A stretch of DNA of 64,000 bases from an uncultured Gemmatimonadales bacterium. Its GTDB lineage: Bacteria; Gemmatimonadota; Gemmatimonadetes; Longimicrobiales; RSA9. The DNA lies in assembly GCA_963798085.1 (NCBI GenBank), contig CAWCRS010000010.1, positions 96,001 through 160,000 on the forward strand, read 5' to 3'. Each line of letters starts with the position of its first letter. The first letter of the stretch is position 1. The translations under genes and the position numbers were made by a program. Below, piece by piece: positions 39,083-47,727 of the stretch. Under the pieces are notes generated by a model. The model made no database searches. It saw nothing but the letters and a program-made list of their open reading frames with translations, and was not told where the DNA came from.

Positions 39083-39381
39083 CTCGAGCGGCAATCCAAT
39101 GGAGGATACAGCCGGGAGCCGGGGCTCACGAGCCGCGCCGGTCCTGTCGCCAGGTCCTGACCGGCGCTTCACCTCCACGAGCCCTCCTTTGCCCTGGGCG
39201 AGATCGGCCGCCGCGCGACTCAGCACGCGGGATCCGGCAACCGGTGCTGGCCGGCGCGCGAACGCCCGGTCCGAATCCCGCCTCCGTTGCCACGAACCGT
39301 CCGGCTGCCGGCGAGTGGCCTCGCGCGCGCACAGCCCCGCCCCTACATTGCCCGCGTGTTCTCTGACTTCCGGAGGGTGGA

Positions 39382-39981
39382 GTGAAGAACGTTCGGACTC
39401 TGGCGCTTGCGGTGGGCGGCATGGCGGCACTGGCGCTGCCGCTGCAGGCCCAGCAGACGGCCGAGGAAGTGAAGCCGCTCGAGGTGGGCGCGACTGCGCC
39501 CGACTTCGCGGTGCCCGGCGCCACACGCTACGGCGTGCTGAAGGACCAGATCCACCTCAGCGATTTCAAGGGCAAGACCGTCGTCCTCGCCTTCTTCTTC
39601 AAGGCAAGGACACGAGGCTGAACGATCCAAATGCACGCGTACCGTGATCAGTACGCGCAGATCTTCCACACCGGCCAGAACGTCGTGCTGCTCGCCCTCA
39701 GCGCCGATCCGGTCGACGAGCTGTACGCCTGGGCAAGGGACGACCAGTTCCAGTTCCTGTTCGGCAGCGACAAGGATTTGACGGTCGGCAAGCTGTACGG
39801 CGCGTACGATCCTCGCCGGCCGACCATGACGAACCGCAACCTGTTCGTGGTTGGACCCGACGGGAAGATCGCGTATCGCGCCGTCCCGTTCCACGAGGTG
39901 GATCCGCAGGCTTACACGGAGTTAGGAGATGCGGTCAGGAAACTGCTGCCGCCGGACACCACGGGAGGCGGCTTCCACTGA
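39382..39981 (+). CDS. exported peroxiredoxin-like (AhpC/TSA/redoxin) selenoprotein; TGA 39619-39621 predicted Sec
   Basis: ORFs 39382-39621 and 39631-39981 are in frame; LEVGATAPDF...LSDFKGKTVVLAFFFKARTRG-TGA-TIQM...RNLFVVGPDGKI; signal peptide; GGAGG RBS. Confidence 0.85.
39622..39663 (+). promoter_or_regulatory. bacterial SECIS-like stem-loop
   Basis: CGCGTAC (39636-42) pairs with GTACGCG (39651-57); loop CGTGATCA; possible lower pairing GATC/GATC; immediately 3' of the in-frame TGA. Confidence 0.7.
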
Positions 39982-40038: not shown

Positions 40039-40081
40039 AAGAGGGCCACGCCGTCCCACGGACCGCGTGGCCTTCTCTTTT
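40039..40081 (+). terminator. rho-independent terminator
   Basis: GGCCACGC...GCGTGGCC stem followed by TTCTCTTTT, downstream of the redoxin gene. Confidence 0.6.
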
Positions 40082-40244: not shown

Positions 40245-40733
40245 TCACATGCCCGGGCTGGGCGTGGGCTCGGCGCGCGTGGCAAGGATGCTCAGCGCCA
40301 GGATGATGCCGCCGATGGTGATCGCGGCATCGGCCACGTTGAACACGAGAGGAAAGAAGGGGAAGAGCAGAAAGTCGGTGACGCCGCCGTGGGCAATGCG
40401 GTCGCCCAGATTGCCCAGCGCGCCGCCCACCACGAGCGCGATGCCGAGTTGCACGCGTGCGTCGGAGCTGGCTCGCGCCAGCCGCACCAGCAGGAAGACA
40501 GCCGCGCAGGCCGCCGCGATGAGCAGCGGCGTACGCCAGATGGCGCCGCTCCCGTTGAGAATGCTGAAGGCGACACCGCGGTTCTGCAGGTGCACGAGGT
40601 ACAGCCAGCCGTTCACCACGGCCACCTGCTGGTGCATTGCGATGCGGTTCAGGATCAGGAACTTCGACCACCAGTCCGCCGCCACCACCGCCACGGTCAG
40701 CCAGCCTATCCAGCGGCTCCAGCGTGGAATCAT
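40245..40733 (-). CDS. lspA: lipoprotein signal peptidase II
   Basis: ADWWSK, NRGVAFS, GGALGNLGDR, VTDF, VFNVADAAITIG. Confidence 0.95.
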   Translation of the reverse strand: MIPRWSRWIGWLTVAVVAADWWSKFLILNRIAMHQQVAVVNGWLYLVHLQNRGVAFSILNGSGAIWRTPLLIAAACAAVFLLVRLARASSDARVQLGIALVVGGALGNLGDRIAHGGVTDFLLFPFFPLVFNVADAAITIGGIILALSILATRAEPTPSPGM

Positions 40734-40748: not shown

Positions 40749-42962
40749 TCAGTGTCCCTGGTGGTTCGTTCTGACACGCTGTTCGCGTTCTTCGCGTCCG
40801 CCGTTGCGCGCCATCGTCGCCTGCAGCAGTCCCGCATACCGACGTGATGGAACCGCGCTTTCGATCTGCACGCGAATGGAATCCCGCTTCACGGGCAAGG
40901 CTTGCAGCGTGATGGGCTGCAGCTCGGTCGAGGCAGTCACCGTAATGCTCGCGAGCGTGCGCTGGTAACCGGGCGCCGAAGCCGTCAGTCGGTATACGCC
41001 GCTGACGGGAACCGTGAAGCGGAAGCGGCCCGCGCTGTCCGTCTGCACGCGGTCGCCGCTGCTGCTGTCGGCGGCGATCAGGTCGACCTGCGCGGACGCG
41101 AGCGGTGCGGACCGCGCGTCCACCACACGGCCCGAGATCACGATCGCGCGCTCCGCCGGGCCGTGTGCGAAACGCAGGTCCAGCTGCATGATGCTGTCTG
41201 CGGTGAGGAAACGCTGCGGCGGCGAGGTCACACTGTCCACTGTGATGCGCACCAGGATGTTGCGGTCCGTGGGCAGCGAGCAGACGTGGTAGCGTCCCTG
41301 CTCGTCGGTTAGCGCGGCGGTATCGCGATGCCTGACGGCAAGGCTGGACGGGATGCCGGCGAAGCTGTCCCAGAGAAAATGCAGCTCGGCGCCGCCCAGG
41401 CGCTGGCCGGACGCGGAATCGCGCACCACGCCGTAGACGCGGCTCTCGCGTTGCGCGCGGTCCGCGGGCGGCGGGCAGTCGGCCAGCACACTGCGTCGGA
41501 TCGGCGGCAGCGCCACGCGGGTCGCGGTCGTCGAATCCGCTGCCACACGCACCGGCACGCCCGCTGCGGGATACGCGGGCAGCGAATCCAGTCGCGGATG
41601 ACCCAGCGTGAGGGTGTAGAGACCGGCCGGCACGTCATTGATGCGGAAGCGGCCCTGGCCATCGGTGGTGGCGCGCATGGCCGTCCCCTCCAGGCTGACC
41701 GTCGCTCCCGCTAACGCAACATTACGGGTGCTGTCGAACGCCTCACCCGCGATGCTGCCCGGACTGGCCAGCACCCAGCGCTGCCCGGCAGCGGCGGCGG
41801 CAACGACTTCCCCGCCCTGCTCCGCGAACTGCTTGATGTGCGGCGGCCCCACCAGTGACCCCATGCGCACGGAATTGATCGCGTAGGGCACGCGGATCAG
41901 CCAGCGGCTCACCAGCCAGGCGCCGTTGGGCAGCATGCGGAACTCGACGCGGCCCGATGCCTGGTCGGCGTAGGGCACATCGTCCGCATCCGTGTAGCGG
42001 ATCTCGATGAAGTCGAGGTGCTGCGTGTGCGCGTCCAGCCAGGCCACGCCGCTCACGCCCGCCTTCTGCCTGGATCCGCCGGCGGGCGTGAACTCCACGC
42101 CCAGCAGCTGGCCGTGGTCGGAGCGCGTCAGCGAGAAACAGTGCGAGGTCTCGAACTCGGAGGAGAGCAGCACCGCCGCGGAGGGCGCGTAGTAGCTGTA
42201 GTCGGAGCCGCTGCGGCGGATGTAGCCGTTCTGCAGGAGGTCGGCGGCGGGCAGGCTCACGAACGGCTCACCCAGCCGGGACGCGAAGCGCTGCAGCGAC
42301 TGGTGCAGCGTGACATCCTGGTCGCTCACCACACGGTCGAACGTGTAGCCATCGTACATCACGACGCGCTGCCGGCTCACGATCGCCGAGTTCGCCAGCG
42401 CGCTCCGGGCCGCGTTCCACACGCGCAGGATGTCCGATGCCGAGGAGCGGATGGCGCAGGTCCGCTGCTTCCTCACATCGATCACATCCAGCGTCAGCGG
42501 TTCCACATCCAGGGCAATGTCGAAATGCCGCGTGCCGCCCGGTTCCATGCGGAAGCGTTCGCCCAGCGCCGTCCGATAACCGAGTGTTTGCACGCGCAGC
42601 CGCACCCGGCCCGTGTCCGCCACGTTCAGCAGGAACTCGCCCTGCTCGTTGCTGAGCGTCTGCAGCAGCGACCTGTCGCTGGCACCCAGCAGCTCGACCA
42701 CCGCCGACGGCAGCGCCCGCCCCGACGCCCGATCCGTCACCCGCCCCGTAACCCGCTGCCCCGCCACCGGCCCGCCATGCAGGAGCGCGAGCAGCACGAT
42801 GCACGCAGCGCACAACCGGCCCCCGCCGCCAGGGCGAGAGGAGCGCCAGTCGCGTTTCAGGAGTCGAACCGGATCACCAGGCCGCAAGTGCACGAATCCG
42901 AAGGAAGGTAAACGAAGGCGCCAGAGCACCGCATGAATACGCCCACCCCGAAGGAGAATCAA
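40749..42962 (-). CDS. exported protein with multiple carboxypeptidase regulatory-like domains
   Basis: Repeated GRVTD/GVVRD/SGRVVD...TDxxGRF/Y beta-sandwich modules; start uncertain, probably downstream of 42962. Confidence 0.75.
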   Translation of the reverse strand: MILLRGGRIHAVLWRLRLPSFGFVHLRPGDPVRLLKRDWRSSRPGGGGRLCAACIVLLALLHGGPVAGQRVTGRVTDRASGRALPSAVVELLGASDRSLLQTLSNEQGEFLLNVADTGRVRLRVQTLGYRTALGERFRMEPGGTRHFDIALDVEPLTLDVIDVRKQRTCAIRSSASDILRVWNAARSALANSAIVSRQRVVMYDGYTFDRVVSDQDVTLHQSLQRFASRLGEPFVSLPAADLLQNGYIRRSGSDYSYYAPSAAVLLSSEFETSHCFSLTRSDHGQLLGVEFTPAGGSRQKAGVSGVAWLDAHTQHLDFIEIRYTDADDVPYADQASGRVEFRMLPNGAWLVSRWLIRVPYAINSVRMGSLVGPPHIKQFAEQGGEVVAAAAAGQRWVLASPGSIAGEAFDSTRNVALAGATVSLEGTAMRATTDGQGRFRINDVPAGLYTLTLGHPRLDSLPAYPAAGVPVRVAADSTTATRVALPPIRRSVLADCPPPADRAQRESRVYGVVRDSASGQRLGGAELHFLWDSFAGIPSSLAVRHRDTAALTDEQGRYHVCSLPTDRNILVRITVDSVTSPPQRFLTADSIMQLDLRFAHGPAERAIVISGRVVDARSAPLASAQVDLIAADSSSGDRVQTDSAGRFRFTVPVSGVYRLTASAPGYQRTLASITVTASTELQPITLQALPVKRDSIRVQIESAVPSRRYAGLLQATMARNGGREEREQRVRTNHQGH

Positions 42963-43050: not shown

Positions 43051-43210
43051 CAATCCGTTATCGCCGTTCCCCGGCAACCAGCCCAAGCCACCAGCCCGGC
43101 AACGCAGTCCAATCCGTAAGTCGCCGTTCCAGGCCCGAGCCCGAGCCCCAGCCCGAGCAACGCAGTTCAATCCGTAAATCGCCGTTCCCAGCCCGAGCCC
43201 CAGCCCGAGC
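43051..43210 (+). repeat. three tandem ~58-bp REP-like direct repeats
   Basis: Units start at 43051, 43110 and 43168 with CAATCCGT..TCGCCGTTCC followed by GCCC(C/G/A)A hexamer-like runs; the first two units end in AACGCAGT. Confidence 0.8.
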
Positions 43211-43226
43211 ACCGCGAAAGGGACGG

Positions 43227-43770
43227 TCAGTGCCCCAGCAGCTTCCCCACCGCTTCCACGAGCTTCTGCCGGTCGCCCGAACCCGTGTACGCCACCTTGC
43301 CGCTCGGCATCGAGGATCACGATGTACGAGGTGGCGGGCGCATCGTAGGCGCGCACGGCGGCGCCCTTCGCGTCGAAGAACACCTTGCCCGGCAGCGTGT
43401 GCGTCTCCAGATGGCGCTTGATCTGCCGCGGCGTCTGGTTCACGCCCACGCCGATGAACAGGATCTCGAGGTTGTCGCCGAACTGCTTCTTCGCGGCGCT
43501 CAGCTGCGGCTCGAGGGCCCGGCAGAGCGGACACCACGTCGCCCAGAACTCGAGCAGCACGGGTCGCTTGCCGAGGAACTGCTGCAGGTCCACCGCGTTG
43601 CCGTCCAGGTCCTCGACCTGCGCCGCGACGGGTGTCGTGCCGATGGGCAGACCCACGTCCTGCGCCCTGGCCGGTCCGGCCAGCGCCAGCGAGCCGGCCA
43701 GTGCGAGCGCGCCGATCCCCGCCGGCCAGCGGAACGGGAAGCGTCGCCTGACATCCGTTGCGGCTGACAT
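43227..43770 (-). CDS. TlpA family thiol-disulfide reductase; frameshift near 43300
   Basis: PVLLEFWATWCPLC motif; signal peptide; C-terminus GKVAYTGSG...KLLGH* lies in a shifted frame. Confidence 0.88.
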
Positions 43771-44498
43771 CACAGCACCATCCCCATCTGCACGAAGTAG
43801 TACTCGGCCATGGCGATCATCACGATCGCGGCGAGCCGCTTGATCCACAGCATCCAGGCGCCTGAGCGCGGCAACCTCGCCAGCAACCCGCTCGACAGTC
43901 CCACGCCCACGAGCAGCGCGGTCATGCCCAGCGAAAACACGAACAGGTAGACGAAGCCGAGCACTGCGCTCTGCGTGCCTGCCACCCAGGTGAGCACCGC
44001 GGCGAATGCAGGCGCGCCGCAGGGCGCCGCTACAATGCCCGAGGTGGCGCCCAGCAGGAATACGCCGGCCAGCGAACCGCCGCGCAGTGAGCCGGCCCAG
44101 CGCGCCAGCCTGCCGGGCACATTGACCGGGATGACGTCCAGCATAGCCAACCCGAAAATCAGCAGCAGGTTCCCCGTGATGAAGCGGGCCCACGGGCTGG
44201 CCGAGACGGTGCCGAAGAGGGAACCGGTGAGGCCGGCAGCGAGACCGAGGATGGCGTAGAACAGCGCGAGACCGAGGACGTAGGCCGCGGTGAGAGCCAC
44301 GGTTCGCCCGCGCGACGCGCCCGCCGTACTGCCGCCCATGATGCCGGCGGTGATGGGGATCATCGGGTAAATGCAGGGCGTCAGGCTGGTGAGCACGCCG
44401 GCGCCGAAGAGTGTGGCGAGTGCCAGCAGTGGCCGGTGCTGCAGCGACTCGGCCAGTGCGCCGGACTGGAGCAGAGCGCCCGGGCCCGTGACTAGCAC
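43770..44498 (-). CDS. ccdA: cytochrome c biogenesis CcdA / DsbD transmembrane domain protein
   Basis: GVLTSLTPCIYPMIP and VAAPCGAP redox Cys motifs; 6 TM helices. Confidence 0.92.
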   Translation of the reverse strand: MLVTGPGALLQSGALAESLQHRPLLALATLFGAGVLTSLTPCIYPMIPITAGIMGGSTAGASRGRTVALTAAYVLGLALFYAILGLAAGLTGSLFGTVSASPWARFITGNLLLIFGLAMLDVIPVNVPGRLARWAGSLRGGSLAGVFLLGATSGIVAAPCGAPAFAAVLTWVAGTQSAVLGFVYLFVFSLGMTALLVGVGLSSGLLARLPRSGAWMLWIKRLAAIVMIAMAEYYFVQMGMVL

Positions 44499-44818: not shown

Positions 44819-46108
44819 TCAATGGATGCGCACTTCTTCCCAGTGACGGTAGCGCCACAGGGTACCGCCCAGGAACGCGCCCAGGACCGTGCTGCCGCCG
44901 ATGACGCCCATGGCAAAGGCAGGCTTGCGTGGCGAGTGCGCGGAGATGGTGCCGGTGCGTCCATTGCCCAGATCCTTCGCTTCCTCGGCCATGGCCCCGA
45001 TGGCCATGGACCCGAGACCCAGAAAGAAACCCCACTTGGCGCCGCGGTACATGCGTTCCGGGGCGCCGGCAATGCCGCCATCGCGTTCCAGCCTGCGCAG
45101 TTCGGGAATGGCGAAGTTGTGCACGTCGGCGCCTGTCTGCAGCGCGATGCTGTCCGGGTTCACGGTCTGCACCACACCCTCCGTCGTGTGGCCGAAGCGC
45201 GTGGTGGCGCGTGCCAGTGTGCCCGGCGTGATGCTGACAGCCGGACGCGCTGCCGGCGGAGCCGCCTTGGGTGCGGTGTTGGCGTAGTTGCCGCGACGCG
45301 TCCACACGAGCACTACGCCGCAAGCGTTCTGGTACTGCAGCGGCGCGCGCGTTCCCGAGTACACTTCGATGCCCTCGATCTCGCTGACATTCACGATGTC
45401 CCACGCATCGACCTTGTGGTCACCGGGGCCCGGATTCTGTCCGACGTAGTTGTTCTCGCGGAACAACTGGCCGTCGAGATAGAGGTCGGGCTCGCAGCCG
45501 GGCAGGCCGCCAGGCGCCTGGCTGAACGCCTGCGTGTCGTTGGTGGGTCGATTCAGGCGAACGTGCCGCCGGCCGGGATCGAGCGTGTACACGCGCACCA
45601 TGGGTACGATCTGGAGAATGTCGGTCAGCGCGTTGGGCTGTTTCTTCTCGATGTCGTCGCGCGAGAAGAAGCTGCCGCCCGGCGAGCTTTCCTCGCGCTC
45701 GTAGAACCCGCTCGCCTGGAGCCAGCCGGAGCGCACCGACACCTCGATCGGTGTCAGGGGAACCGCTTTCTGCGTCAGCGTGATAACAATCTCGTTAGTC
45801 TGTCCCGCTCGCAGCATCATGGAATCGGACCGCGTGGCGTAACCGAGCATTTCGACGATCACGGTGTTGCGCCCTGCCGGTGCGCCGGAGATGGTGAAGC
45901 GCCCCAGGGCGTCCGTCACTGCGCTGGCGCCGCCTTCGCCGTCAATGCGCACCAGCGCGCCCGCGACGGGACGACGATTCTCCTGATCGAGGACGTGGCC
46001 GAGGAGGAGCACGGCCGGCGTCGGCGTTTGCTGCGCTGCAATGTGTCCCGCGAAGAGGAATCCCAGCAGTACTGTCACGAGCCTGCAGATGGCGCGGCGT
46101 TGCCTCAT
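44819..46108 (-). CDS. carboxypeptidase regulatory-like + TonB plug-like domain protein
   Basis: GHVLD...TDALGRF, GFYERE, CEPDLYLDG, EIEGIEVYSG, CGVVLVWTR; C-terminal hydrophobic segments. Confidence 0.8.
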   Translation of the reverse strand: MRQRRAICRLVTVLLGFLFAGHIAAQQTPTPAVLLLGHVLDQENRRPVAGALVRIDGEGGASAVTDALGRFTISGAPAGRNTVIVEMLGYATRSDSMMLRAGQTNEIVITLTQKAVPLTPIEVSVRSGWLQASGFYEREESSPGGSFFSRDDIEKKQPNALTDILQIVPMVRVYTLDPGRRHVRLNRPTNDTQAFSQAPGGLPGCEPDLYLDGQLFRENNYVGQNPGPGDHKVDAWDIVNVSEIEGIEVYSGTRAPLQYQNACGVVLVWTRRGNYANTAPKAAPPAARPAVSITPGTLARATTRFGHTTEGVVQTVNPDSIALQTGADVHNFAIPELRRLERDGGIAGAPERMYRGAKWGFFLGLGSMAIGAMAEEAKDLGNGRTGTISAHSPRKPAFAMGVIGGSTVLGAFLGGTLWRYRHWEEVRIH

Positions 46109-46284
46109 GCCGTCACGGTCTCCGAAGCGCCCGCACTGGCGGGAGCTGAACAGGAAGAGCGCCGGTCGCGCGCAGGAACCGGAAACGGTCCCCTGCGCTG
46201 GCCGGCGCATCGCTAATCCGGACTTGAATAGTTAACCCCGGCGCCATCCGCGGGGCAAGCTCGCCGGCCCCTTGCGGACTGTAA

Positions 46285-47727
46285 CTATGTCTCGACATCG
46301 ACCCAGCGGACGAGCTCGCGCAGCGGACCGGCGCCATCGTGGTGCCATGTGGGTGGCGGCCAGGGCATGCGCGCAAAATCGGTGATGCGGGTGGCGCCCG
46401 CGCGTGCCAGCGCGTCCGCCAGGGCTGGCCCGCGTGCGCCCACGCCTTCCATGGCAACGGTCTGCAGATATCCGCGCACGGGCTCGATCAGGGATGGCAC
46501 TTCAGCTACGCTCGACACCCGCTTGATGCGCACGGTGCGATTCAGGCAGGATGCCTCGAAGCGGGCATCGGCTTCGTAGATGACGGTCCAGCCGTTGCCC
46601 GTCAGCAGCTCGATCTCCTCGCCCGCAATGGCGCGGAACTCGGCGGCGCCGCGTGTTTCGTGGATGGCCGCGGCTTCGGCGGGCGAGAGCACACCGCGCG
46701 GCAGCTCGGCCGCGACTGCCTCCAGCGCGGCGGCCAGGCAGTGCGCGAAGCCGCGCGCGCCGATCCCCGCCTCCTCGACATACACGATGTGCGGTGAAAC
46801 GCACCCCTGCTGATCGAACAGCGATACCGCCCATGCAACGCGTGCCGCTGCCGTGTTAGCCAATTCCGGCGAGGCGAGTGCGTCGCCGCCCAGCAGACCG
46901 ATGGACACACGCGGACCGTGGTCGATCACGCGCGTCGTAGCCGGCGCGCGACTGCGCATGGCGCGCACCGCATCCCCACCGCCATAGACCACGATGGCAT
47001 CCGCCGCCGTCACCGCCTCATCCTCGACGAGCGACTGCCCTCCGGGCCAATAGGTCACAGCCAGACAGTCGGCCAGTCCGCTGTCCACCGAAGCCAGAGC
47101 GCGGGCAAACAGCACTGTCAGGAGCGGGTCGCCGGACGCGGTCTTGCCCAGCATCGCGCCCTTGACCAGCAGTGTGCGCACCAGCGCGGTCACGGCCACG
47201 CCCGGCACACTGCCGGAGAACACGTGGAAGGCCAGGCGAGGACCGAGAGCCCGTGTGTGTACGCCGTGCCGTCTCTGGTAGCCGTCCAGCACGTGACCCG
47301 GCAGCTCGCTGTCCAGCAGATGCAGCAGCGCCGCTTCGCTCCAGTCGTCGCTGAAGCGATCCAGCAGCAGGCGGATCATGGCCGGCGAATAGCCCGTGAT
47401 TTGCGGCAGCGCACGCTCTGCCAGCTGGCGCAACGCGTCATCGGGTTGCGCCAGACGGTGCGCCGCGCGACCCAGGCAATGCGCAATGGCGGCCGCCGGC
47501 AGCGGCTCGAGCGCAATGCGCCGCGACGCTTCCATCCTGGCCAGCAGTGCGGTCAGTGCGCCTTCGCGCAGAACGGGGAAACGCAGCGTCACACCCCGGC
47601 CGTACTCGCGCACCTCCCACGCTGTCACATCATCTGCTGTGAGACCCGGCAGATGGAACGCGTCGATCACCGTGCTGCCGGTGCCGACATCGCGGTGCGG
47701 TGCGGGCGAGGCGCTCACCGAGTTCAT
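46285..47727 (-). CDS. acyl-CoA reductase (LuxC family)
   Basis: FHVFSGSVPG, VVYGGGDAV, HGPRVS, catalytic FDQQGCVSP, C-terminal WHHDG...L. Confidence 0.9.
   Translation of the reverse strand: MNSVSASPAPHRDVGTGSTVIDAFHLPGLTADDVTAWEVREYGRGVTLRFPVLREGALTALLARMEASRRIALEPLPAAAIAHCLGRAAHRLAQPDDALRQLAERALPQITGYSPAMIRLLLDRFSDDWSEAALLHLLDSELPGHVLDGYQRRHGVHTRALGPRLAFHVFSGSVPGVAVTALVRTLLVKGAMLGKTASGDPLLTVLFARALASVDSGLADCLAVTYWPGGQSLVEDEAVTAADAIVVYGGGDAVRAMRSRAPATTRVIDHGPRVSIGLLGGDALASPELANTAAARVAWAVSLFDQQGCVSPHIVYVEEAGIGARGFAHCLAAALEAVAAELPRGVLSPAEAAAIHETRGAAEFRAIAGEEIELLTGNGWTVIYEADARFEASCLNRTVRIKRVSSVAEVPSLIEPVRGYLQTVAMEGVGARGPALADALARAGATRITDFARMPWPPPTWHHDGAGPLRELVRWVDVET

Follow-up and report, generated by a model that had tools for sequence, protein, structure and literature searches.

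A predicted exported selenocysteine peroxiredoxin of Gemmatimonadota with an aromatic residue at the site of the active-site proline

A peroxiredoxin gene with an in-frame TGA

The window analyzed here is the whole stretch of 64,000 nucleotides of DNA from an uncultured Gemmatimonadales bacterium. On its plus strand, a frame that opens with GTG at 39382 and ends with a TGA stop (39979–39981) encodes a peroxiredoxin of 199 amino acids (39382–39981) when its single internal TGA, in the context FFFKARTRG-TGA-TIQM, is read as selenocysteine (predicted Sec80, 39619–39621, plus strand). A Shine–Dalgarno-like GGAGG was recognized in the sequence on the same strand (39372–39376), 5 nt upstream of the start codon. 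Gene calling with translation table 11 split the frame into 39382–39621 (79 amino acids) and 39631–39981 (116 amino acids), and the 116-amino acid C-terminal half is present as protein P0002 in a public protein collection. Four of the 120 database proteins examined were C-terminal halves starting at the Met after the TGA, entries that show how annotation handles the Sec form. A preliminary description of this DNA had proposed that the two annotated ORFs form one frame interrupted only by the TGA, and this was borne out by a match to PF00578 (AhpC-TSA) that spans residues 35–165 and crosses the TGA (E = 1.2e-24; 87 bits against a cut-off of 26). It had also stated that Cys is absent from the whole protein, and the read-through product indeed contains none.

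A promoter search at the peroxiredoxin gene found nothing σ70-like, and a terminator-like match at 40056–40070 was weak (three found against 0.9 expected). No public read runs of this strain were found (best share of words, 0.06). In four metatranscriptome runs searched at 80% similarity, the only matches were fragments from relatives. Some of these span the TGA and the downstream hairpin; they are silent on the expression and the codon of this gene.

Alternation of TGA and Cys codons among homologues

Matching genes were found in 43 of 61 related genomes at E ≤ 1e-20 and, across Gemmatimonadota, in 261 of 301 genomes at E ≤ 1e-22 (260 of 300 without genome G198). The codon at the Sec site was read from 219 loci picked by score and family, and thus from a non-random sample, which after removal of 5 duplicates and addition of 1 tandem copy comprised 215 distinct genes. 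TGA stood at the site in 150 of these and TGC or TGT in 65, with 21 of the 65 Cys genes forming a more distant paralogous group. Alternation of Cys and TGA at this codon, as the preliminary description had envisaged, is therefore observed, and a sequencing error, which it had named as a possible source of the TGA, is excluded because the same TGA recurs in many independent assemblies. The gene is no rarity: it belongs to a family found throughout the phylum, one of a selenoprotein type already known (TxxU peroxiredoxins).

Several genomes hold more than one copy. Tandem Sec and Cys copies occur at G135:C19:42125-43194 and G241:C14:128502-129592, where the Sec copy retains Pro in the active-site motif; two Sec copies are present in G206, and two Cys copies in G177, G317 and G328, in which no selB was found. 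Among the database proteins, P0009, P0020, P0024, P0117 and P0119 combine Phe or Tyr at the Pro site with Trp, Leu or Val at the Sec site; in these the TGA was probably read with another code or miscalled, and they are possibly dead variants. P0031 has Tyr at the Pro site together with a Cys that may be Sec written as C.

A SECIS-type hairpin downstream of the UGA

A bacterial SECIS-type hairpin (39636–39657, plus strand; −9.4 kcal/mol) with a 7-bp stem and the 8-nt loop CGUGAUCA was located 21 nt after the UGA. Its arms, CGCGTAC (39636–39642) and GTACGCG (39651–39657), close the loop CGTGATCA with G as the second loop position; coordinates and fold thus agree with the hairpin, guanine and spacing given in the preliminary description. 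Bacterial SECIS elements are characterized, in passages of PMC13188914, by a loop of 3–9 nt, a stem of 4–16 bp, G within the first two loop positions, a spacing of 16–37 nt and an energy of −7.5 kcal/mol or lower, and the hairpin fits all constraints quoted there. Its energy relative to shuffled sequences was only modest (z = −1.1 to −2.2), so that the weight of the hairpin comes from its conservation rather than its energy.

The six-pair core of the stem was intact in 149 of 149 TGA genes versus 3 of 65 Cys genes, and the loop was CGTGATCA in 140 of the 149. The loop codon was CGT in 145 of 149 TGA genes, a codon that accounts for 11% of the Arg codons of this genome, and CAA, 6% of its Gln codons, was found in the loop in 110 of 149. 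The closing pair lies on two third codon positions and was C-G in 64, G-C in 33 and U-A in 24 of 150 TGA genes, the kind of compensatory change that the preliminary description had proposed looking for. It was Watson–Crick in 121 of 150 versus 48 expected under site independence, a comparison in which relatedness inflates the counts, and its mutual information was 1.09 bit, with 0.24 for the next third-position site. Conservation and covariation together indicate that the hairpin is under selection at the RNA level.

Selenocysteine machinery and use of TGA

The selenocysteine machinery for which the preliminary description had proposed a genome check is complete, with selA (577 bits), selB (348), selD (392) and selC, the tRNA-Sec gene (68), all scoring above their family cut-offs in the bacterium's own genome. 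The selD gene (L004, G000:C3:871853-872776) encodes a selenoprotein in its own right (GAG-U-ACK), and its UGA is followed by a hairpin. A gene of the SelT/SelW/SelH family (SelW-like; L229, G000:C3:535002-535211), above the NCBIfam cut-offs, carries CxxU with an in-frame TGA; its downstream hairpin has a 4-nt loop and lies farther from the UGA than that of the peroxiredoxin gene. TGA terminates 1065 of 1425 long coding frames and is the commonest stop in the genome, and it is therefore not a sense codon in general. A scan of the whole genome for Sec codons gave too much noise (64 hairpin-bearing candidates, with selD missed), and only its codon and stop counts were retained. Four molybdopterin-domain matches contained no in-frame stops, an incomplete test for a Sec formate dehydrogenase.

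A search for selB was made in 80 lower-scoring genomes, chosen non-randomly and all rated at least 92% complete, and matches above the cut-off were obtained in 44 of the 80, with the proviso that a missing selB in a draft is not proof of its absence. A selB gene was present in each of the 25 genomes whose TGA gene had been verified, and all 36 selB-negative genomes had Cys at the site. The same split ran within genera, with Sec/selB-positive versus Cys/selB-negative genomes numbering 3 versus 3 in g63, 1 versus 10 in g74 and 3 versus 2 in g113. The remaining 19 selB-positive genomes had Cys matches only, 18 of which were distant paralogues. Close Cys orthologues in selB-positive genomes were found in G026, G103 and G319, so that return to Cys is not always coupled to loss of the machinery. 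Within family f5, no selB match was obtained in genera g90 (0 of 13), g94 (0 of 3) and g81 (0 of 2) and sister genera have selB, a distribution that indicates that the Sec trait has been lost patchily within the phylum.

Peroxiredoxin identity and active site

Alignment with solved BCP proteins placed Phe73 (codon 39598–39600), Thr77 (39610–39612) and Sec80 at the positions of the peroxiredoxin motif PxxxTxxC, all on the plus strand, in agreement with the preliminary assignment of the TGA to the peroxidatic Cys position and of Phe to the site of the Pro, a residue regarded as invariant in peroxiredoxins. The active-site loop residue Thr77 is Thr or Ser in 149 of 150 Sec homologues. The conserved Arg that had been noted in TNRNLFVV is Arg152 (39835–39837, plus strand), the conserved catalytic (distal) Arg of peroxiredoxins, present in 150 of 150 Sec and 44 of 44 close Cys homologues. 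Downstream of the catalytic site, only one of 149 Sec genes carries a Cys; none of the 65 Cys genes does, and neither does any of the 116 database proteins that include this site. The family is thus without a downstream resolving Cys.

An AlphaFold model of the mature part, computed from aligned Cys homologues and with Cys in place of Sec80, gave a pLDDT of 91 and a pTM of 0.86. Fold searching with this model matched Bcp4 and AhpE folds best (3hjp, E = 7e-14; 1xvw, E = 6e-13; TM 0.75–0.88), with the two scoring alike, and also matched Prx1 folds. No NCBIfam model reached its cut-off: the best, bcp, scored 60.9 against 140, PrxQ 37.9 against 260 and PrxU (NF040737) 52.9 against 270, and no other seleno-peroxiredoxin model matched at E ≤ 0.01. 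The peroxiredoxin variant of the thioredoxin fold, Thr77, Sec80 and Arg152 are thus in place and the Pro is replaced by Phe73; because of this replacement the protein was classed as a variant predicted to act in the manner of a peroxiredoxin, not as a canonical member.

Replacement of the active-site proline

The change from Pro to Phe is the most unusual feature of the gene. Pro and Arg around the peroxiredoxin Cys are called absolutely conserved, and the motif essential, in a passage of one review (PMC4749874); PxxxTxxU is described as highly conserved in Sec peroxiredoxins in part of a 2026 selenoproteome review (PMC13188914), and the Pro is regarded as a solvent barrier in a passage of a structure paper (PMC3337327). 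Among the 150 Sec genes, the residue at the Pro site was Phe in 91, Tyr in 41, Ile in 5, Val in 2, His in 1 and Pro in 10; it was thus other than Pro in 140 (Phe or Tyr in 132), and Pro in 65 of 65 Cys genes. Full-length Cys proteins from the database likewise had Pro in 110 of 111 cases, the lone exception having Tyr. Position 73 was the column that best separated Sec from close Cys genes (0.93, with 0.74 for the next). The counts indicate that in this family Pro is required with Cys and that mostly Phe or Tyr stands with Sec. The Pro of the ten remaining Sec genes shows that the aromatic residue is not required for the use of Sec.

As a control, metagenome contigs were screened for genes of the canonical BCP type whose catalytic codon is TGA, the Pro codon being left free, and at least 120 loci were obtained; the pattern demanded Y-F-Y upstream, so that the sample represents that type of Sec peroxiredoxin. 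There were 118 distinct matches among those listed; 108 of them were kept, the other 10 having given no BLAST match to the query. Pro was present in 102 of these 108 control Sec-BCPs and an aromatic residue in none, among the matches listed, so that loss of Pro is specific to the exported clade and no general result of Sec. Many of the control loci (L230–L349), among the matches listed, are cytoplasmic BCP genes of the ordinary kind in which TGA occupies the catalytic position. A downstream Cys was absent from 47 of 108 (some of them cut by locus ends) and UxxxxC was present in 23 of 108, again among the matches listed; a subgroup with TREAHQF has a longer N terminus.

Phylogeny of the Sec and Cys forms

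Trees were built from about 140 columns with the active-site and SECIS-coded columns masked. On a tree of 124 rows, which includes 60 of the 140 non-Pro genes and 10 of the 21 distant genes, the minimum number of changes was 14 for Sec/Cys and 12 for Pro/non-Pro; on a tree of 325 rows, the corresponding numbers were 27 and 23. Forcing the 60 non-Pro rows into one clade cost 240 log-likelihood units (p-AU = 6e-12), and a single origin of the non-Pro genes in one clade is rejected. At several points in the trees, Cys/Pro genes sit within groups of Sec/aromatic genes, for example in genus g113 (support 94 and 98). Independent contrasts on well-supported branches were 5 concordant, 0 opposite and 2 uninformative (p = 0.0625), and on the larger tree 4 concordant, 0 opposite and 1 uninformative (p = 0.125), neither being significant. 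Given the tandem Sec and Cys copies, paralogy or conversion may account for part of the pattern.

Export signal and neighbouring genes

Residues 1–23 (39382–39450, plus strand) form a predicted cleavable signal peptide with a basic N-region, a hydrophobic core and the site LQA-Q, as judged by eye and with a simple heuristic. The heuristic, used with no negative control, was satisfied by 135 of 150 Sec and 59 of 65 Cys homologues (194 of 215 in all).

A ccdA–tlpA pair lies on the minus strand 3.2 kb downstream of the peroxiredoxin gene, beyond lspA and a carboxypeptidase-regulatory-domain gene. The tlpA gene (43227–43770) encodes a TlpA/ResA-like thioredoxin (WCPLC) with a signal-peptide-like N terminus, 55% identical to the TlpA encoded next to the peroxiredoxin gene in relatives and a candidate electron donor. 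The adjoining gene (43770–44498) encodes a CcdA-type transporter (DsbD transmembrane domain; PF02683, E = 7.8e-45), a candidate conduit, which is 78% identical to the relatives' neighbour and translationally coupled to tlpA. Across relatives, tlpA lay within 1.5 kb of the peroxiredoxin gene at 50 of 80 Sec loci, with ccdA as well at 42 of 80, versus 1 of 17 Cys loci, and ccdA–tlpA was not found within 1.5 kb at 30 of 80 Sec and 16 of 17 Cys loci; the pair occurs mostly in families f1, f2 and f7, so that this synteny contrast is confounded with taxonomy. In many relatives the pair is convergent to the peroxiredoxin gene, and its position on the opposite strand means that it is not co-transcribed with it.

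The tlpA of the window comprises 544 nt between the start and stop expected from relatives, and near 43300 the coding of its C-terminal strand and helix passes into a different frame; this is probably a single-base assembly indel and possibly a real frameshift. Between tlpA and the next gene (43100–43220), the window carries short imperfect GGGCTGGGGCTCGGGCT-like and ACGGCGA-TTACGGATTG-like repeats. The listed neighbours, all on the minus strand, further include signal peptidase II (lspA, 40245–40733), carboxypeptidase-regulatory-like-domain proteins (40749–42962 and 44819–46210, one with a TonB plug) and, last, a LuxC-type acyl-CoA reductase (46285–47727); no link of these genes to the peroxiredoxin was found.

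Discussion

We read the locus as one gene in which UGA specifies Sec and whose product, a BCP/AhpE-like peroxiredoxin predicted to be exported, would serve to reduce peroxides of the cell envelope, and we assign this reading a probability of roughly 0.85. Incorporation of Sec at the UGA is almost certain, export very probable and peroxidase activity likely. By what is established of Sec biology, SelB carrying Sec-tRNA would bind the hairpin 21 nt downstream and thereby decode the UGA. The signal peptide would carry the protein across the inner membrane, where, following the peroxiredoxin mechanism, Sec80 would attack a peroxide positioned by Thr77 and Arg152, itself being oxidized to a selenenic acid. 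Because the protein is without a resolving Cys, an outside thiol would have to reduce this acid; the most likely donor is the TlpA-like thioredoxin, which, fed by CcdA, would restore the selenolate. Synteny and the analogy with PprX, described below, speak slightly in favour of CcdA–TlpA as this electron donor. On the reading that we prefer, a selenolate would need less activation than a thiolate, under which circumstances an aromatic lid might be favoured, and aromatic residue 73 may shield Sec or shape a hydrophobic pocket for the peroxide.

We consider it fairly probable that Phe or Tyr is functionally coupled to Sec. The fullest account of this coupling, to which we give a little less than even odds, is that the active site was rebuilt for Sec: an aromatic lid would have replaced Pro, Pro would return with each reversion to Cys through many switches, which would make Sec/aromatic and Cys/Pro two interchangeable answers to one catalytic task, and CcdA–TlpA would recycle the enzyme in the oxidizing envelope. 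Alternatively, Sec may merely relax the need for Pro, with Phe or Tyr fixed early and the nested Cys/Pro genes representing retained paralogues, transfer or gene conversion limited to the active-site segment and not repeated reversion. The tandem Sec and Cys copies of G135 and G241 fit this account, as do the two base changes needed to go from Phe or Tyr to Pro, the ten Sec genes that manage with Pro and the non-significant contrasts. Relaxation alone, however, predicts mixed residues at the site, whereas 132 of the 140 non-Pro Sec genes have Phe or Tyr and the others are mostly hydrophobic; Cys with a non-Pro residue was seen at 0 of 65 loci, not even transiently; and masking the active-site and SECIS columns does not separate Cys/Pro genes from the Sec/aromatic genes of their own genus (g113, support 94–98). 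We regard relaxation as a possible but doubtful explanation.

Loss of Pro could also mark a selenoprotein with a changed job, such as a peroxide sensor, a redox relay or an envelope reductase for a special substrate. Such a change would suit a residue and motif described as absolutely conserved and essential in peroxiredoxins (passage of PMC4749874), the missing resolving Cys and a genome that retains other, canonical AhpC/TSA-family genes. It is nevertheless unlikely: the peroxide-binding and activating residues are kept in the Sec genes (Thr/Ser in 149 of 150, Arg in 150 of 150), and whether a genome has the Cys/Pro or the Sec/Phe orthologue depends, inside a genus, on its selB status, a pattern that points to a common function.

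A true stop at the TGA, which would make the locus a pseudogene or the source of two short proteins, the second re-initiated at ATG 39631, is very improbable. An ATG does lie 9 nt past the TGA in 144 of 149 TGA genes, and the C-terminal half appears as a protein in gene-caller output, but the same Met is present in uninterrupted Cys orthologues, the break falls exactly at the catalytic residue in 150 genes with a covarying hairpin, and the TGA form occurs only in selB-positive genomes among those searched. Genome-wide reading of TGA as Trp or Gly, or a misread TGC, is refuted as a general explanation and carries next to no weight, in spite of Trp at this site in two database proteins and the apparent indel in the nearby tlpA of the same assembly, since TGA is the commonest stop and terminates this very gene, and the identical codon turns up at this site across many assemblies, in 150 distinct genes.

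It has long been asked why Sec takes the place of Cys in some enzymes, and when the two are exchanged directly, the rest of the active site usually acts as a confounder. In the present family, hundreds of natural orthologues, some with Sec and others with Cys, differ most at a single adjacent residue, and a mutant cycle of four proteins can therefore ask both what the peroxiredoxin Pro does and what it is that selenium replaces. Cultured Gemmatimonadota are mostly aerobic, and an envelope selenoperoxidase in them would for that reason qualify the view of selenoproteins as rare in aerobes. That view is expressed in part of a 2026 review, by which selenoproteins are rarely retained in aerobic bacteria (PMC13188914). 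There is also a consequence for annotation, as gene callers split the gene, and selB in 44 of 80 genomes compares with a phylum scored Sec-negative in the relevant entry of a 2016 survey, whose only listed genome was Gemmatimonas aurantiaca T-27 (PMC5029168). A term search of the main texts of PMC13188914, PMC5029168, PMC9312934, PMC12013277 and PMC5330540 returned no mention of Gemmatimonadota, nor was one seen in the supplements of PMC12013277. Our literature search returned no paper on this exported Sec peroxiredoxin family or its loss of Pro, which does not establish absence from print.

Comparison with known systems

Sec peroxiredoxins with TxxU (PF00578/COG1225 Bcp) are an established selenoprotein family (passages of PMC13188914 and PMC9312934), reported in 78 organisms in part of PMC5029168. 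The protein described here resembles them, including PrxU of Eubacterium acidaminophilum, in having Sec at the peroxidatic position, TxxU, the same Pfam family and a SECIS element within the gene (passages of PMC13188914 and PMC9312934). It differs in its mostly [F/Y]xxxTxxU motif, its predicted N-terminal signal peptide and its lack of any Cys; most other Sec-BCPs, among the matches listed, start about 42–50 residues before Sec, without an extension of signal length.

In structure and in PDB sequence, the best matches were the 1-Cys peroxiredoxin AhpE of Mycobacterium tuberculosis and archaeal Bcp4/PrxQ. AhpE, like the present peroxiredoxin, is without a resolving Cys. Both matches are only about 28–30% identical to it, are Cys-based and keep Pro in the aligned solved sequences. 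AhpE and Bcp4/PrxQ are cytoplasmic.

The closest parallel for an exported enzyme is Caulobacter crescentus, in which the DsbD-family protein ScsB passes electrons to TlpA and on to the periplasmic BCP/PrxQ peroxiredoxin PprX (passage of PMC3322552). Common to both are a BCP-like peroxiredoxin that is exported (here by prediction), a TlpA-like thioredoxin and a DsbD-family transporter as the proposed route, a likeness drawn from published descriptions. PprX is a Cys enzyme with PXXXTXXC and ScsB as transporter, whereas here predicted Sec and a small CcdA-type neighbour are found, and the donor link demonstrated for PprX would apply to the present protein by analogy. Sec peroxiredoxins and exported peroxiredoxins are thus both known, and the distinctive point of this family is the Sec-linked loss of Pro.
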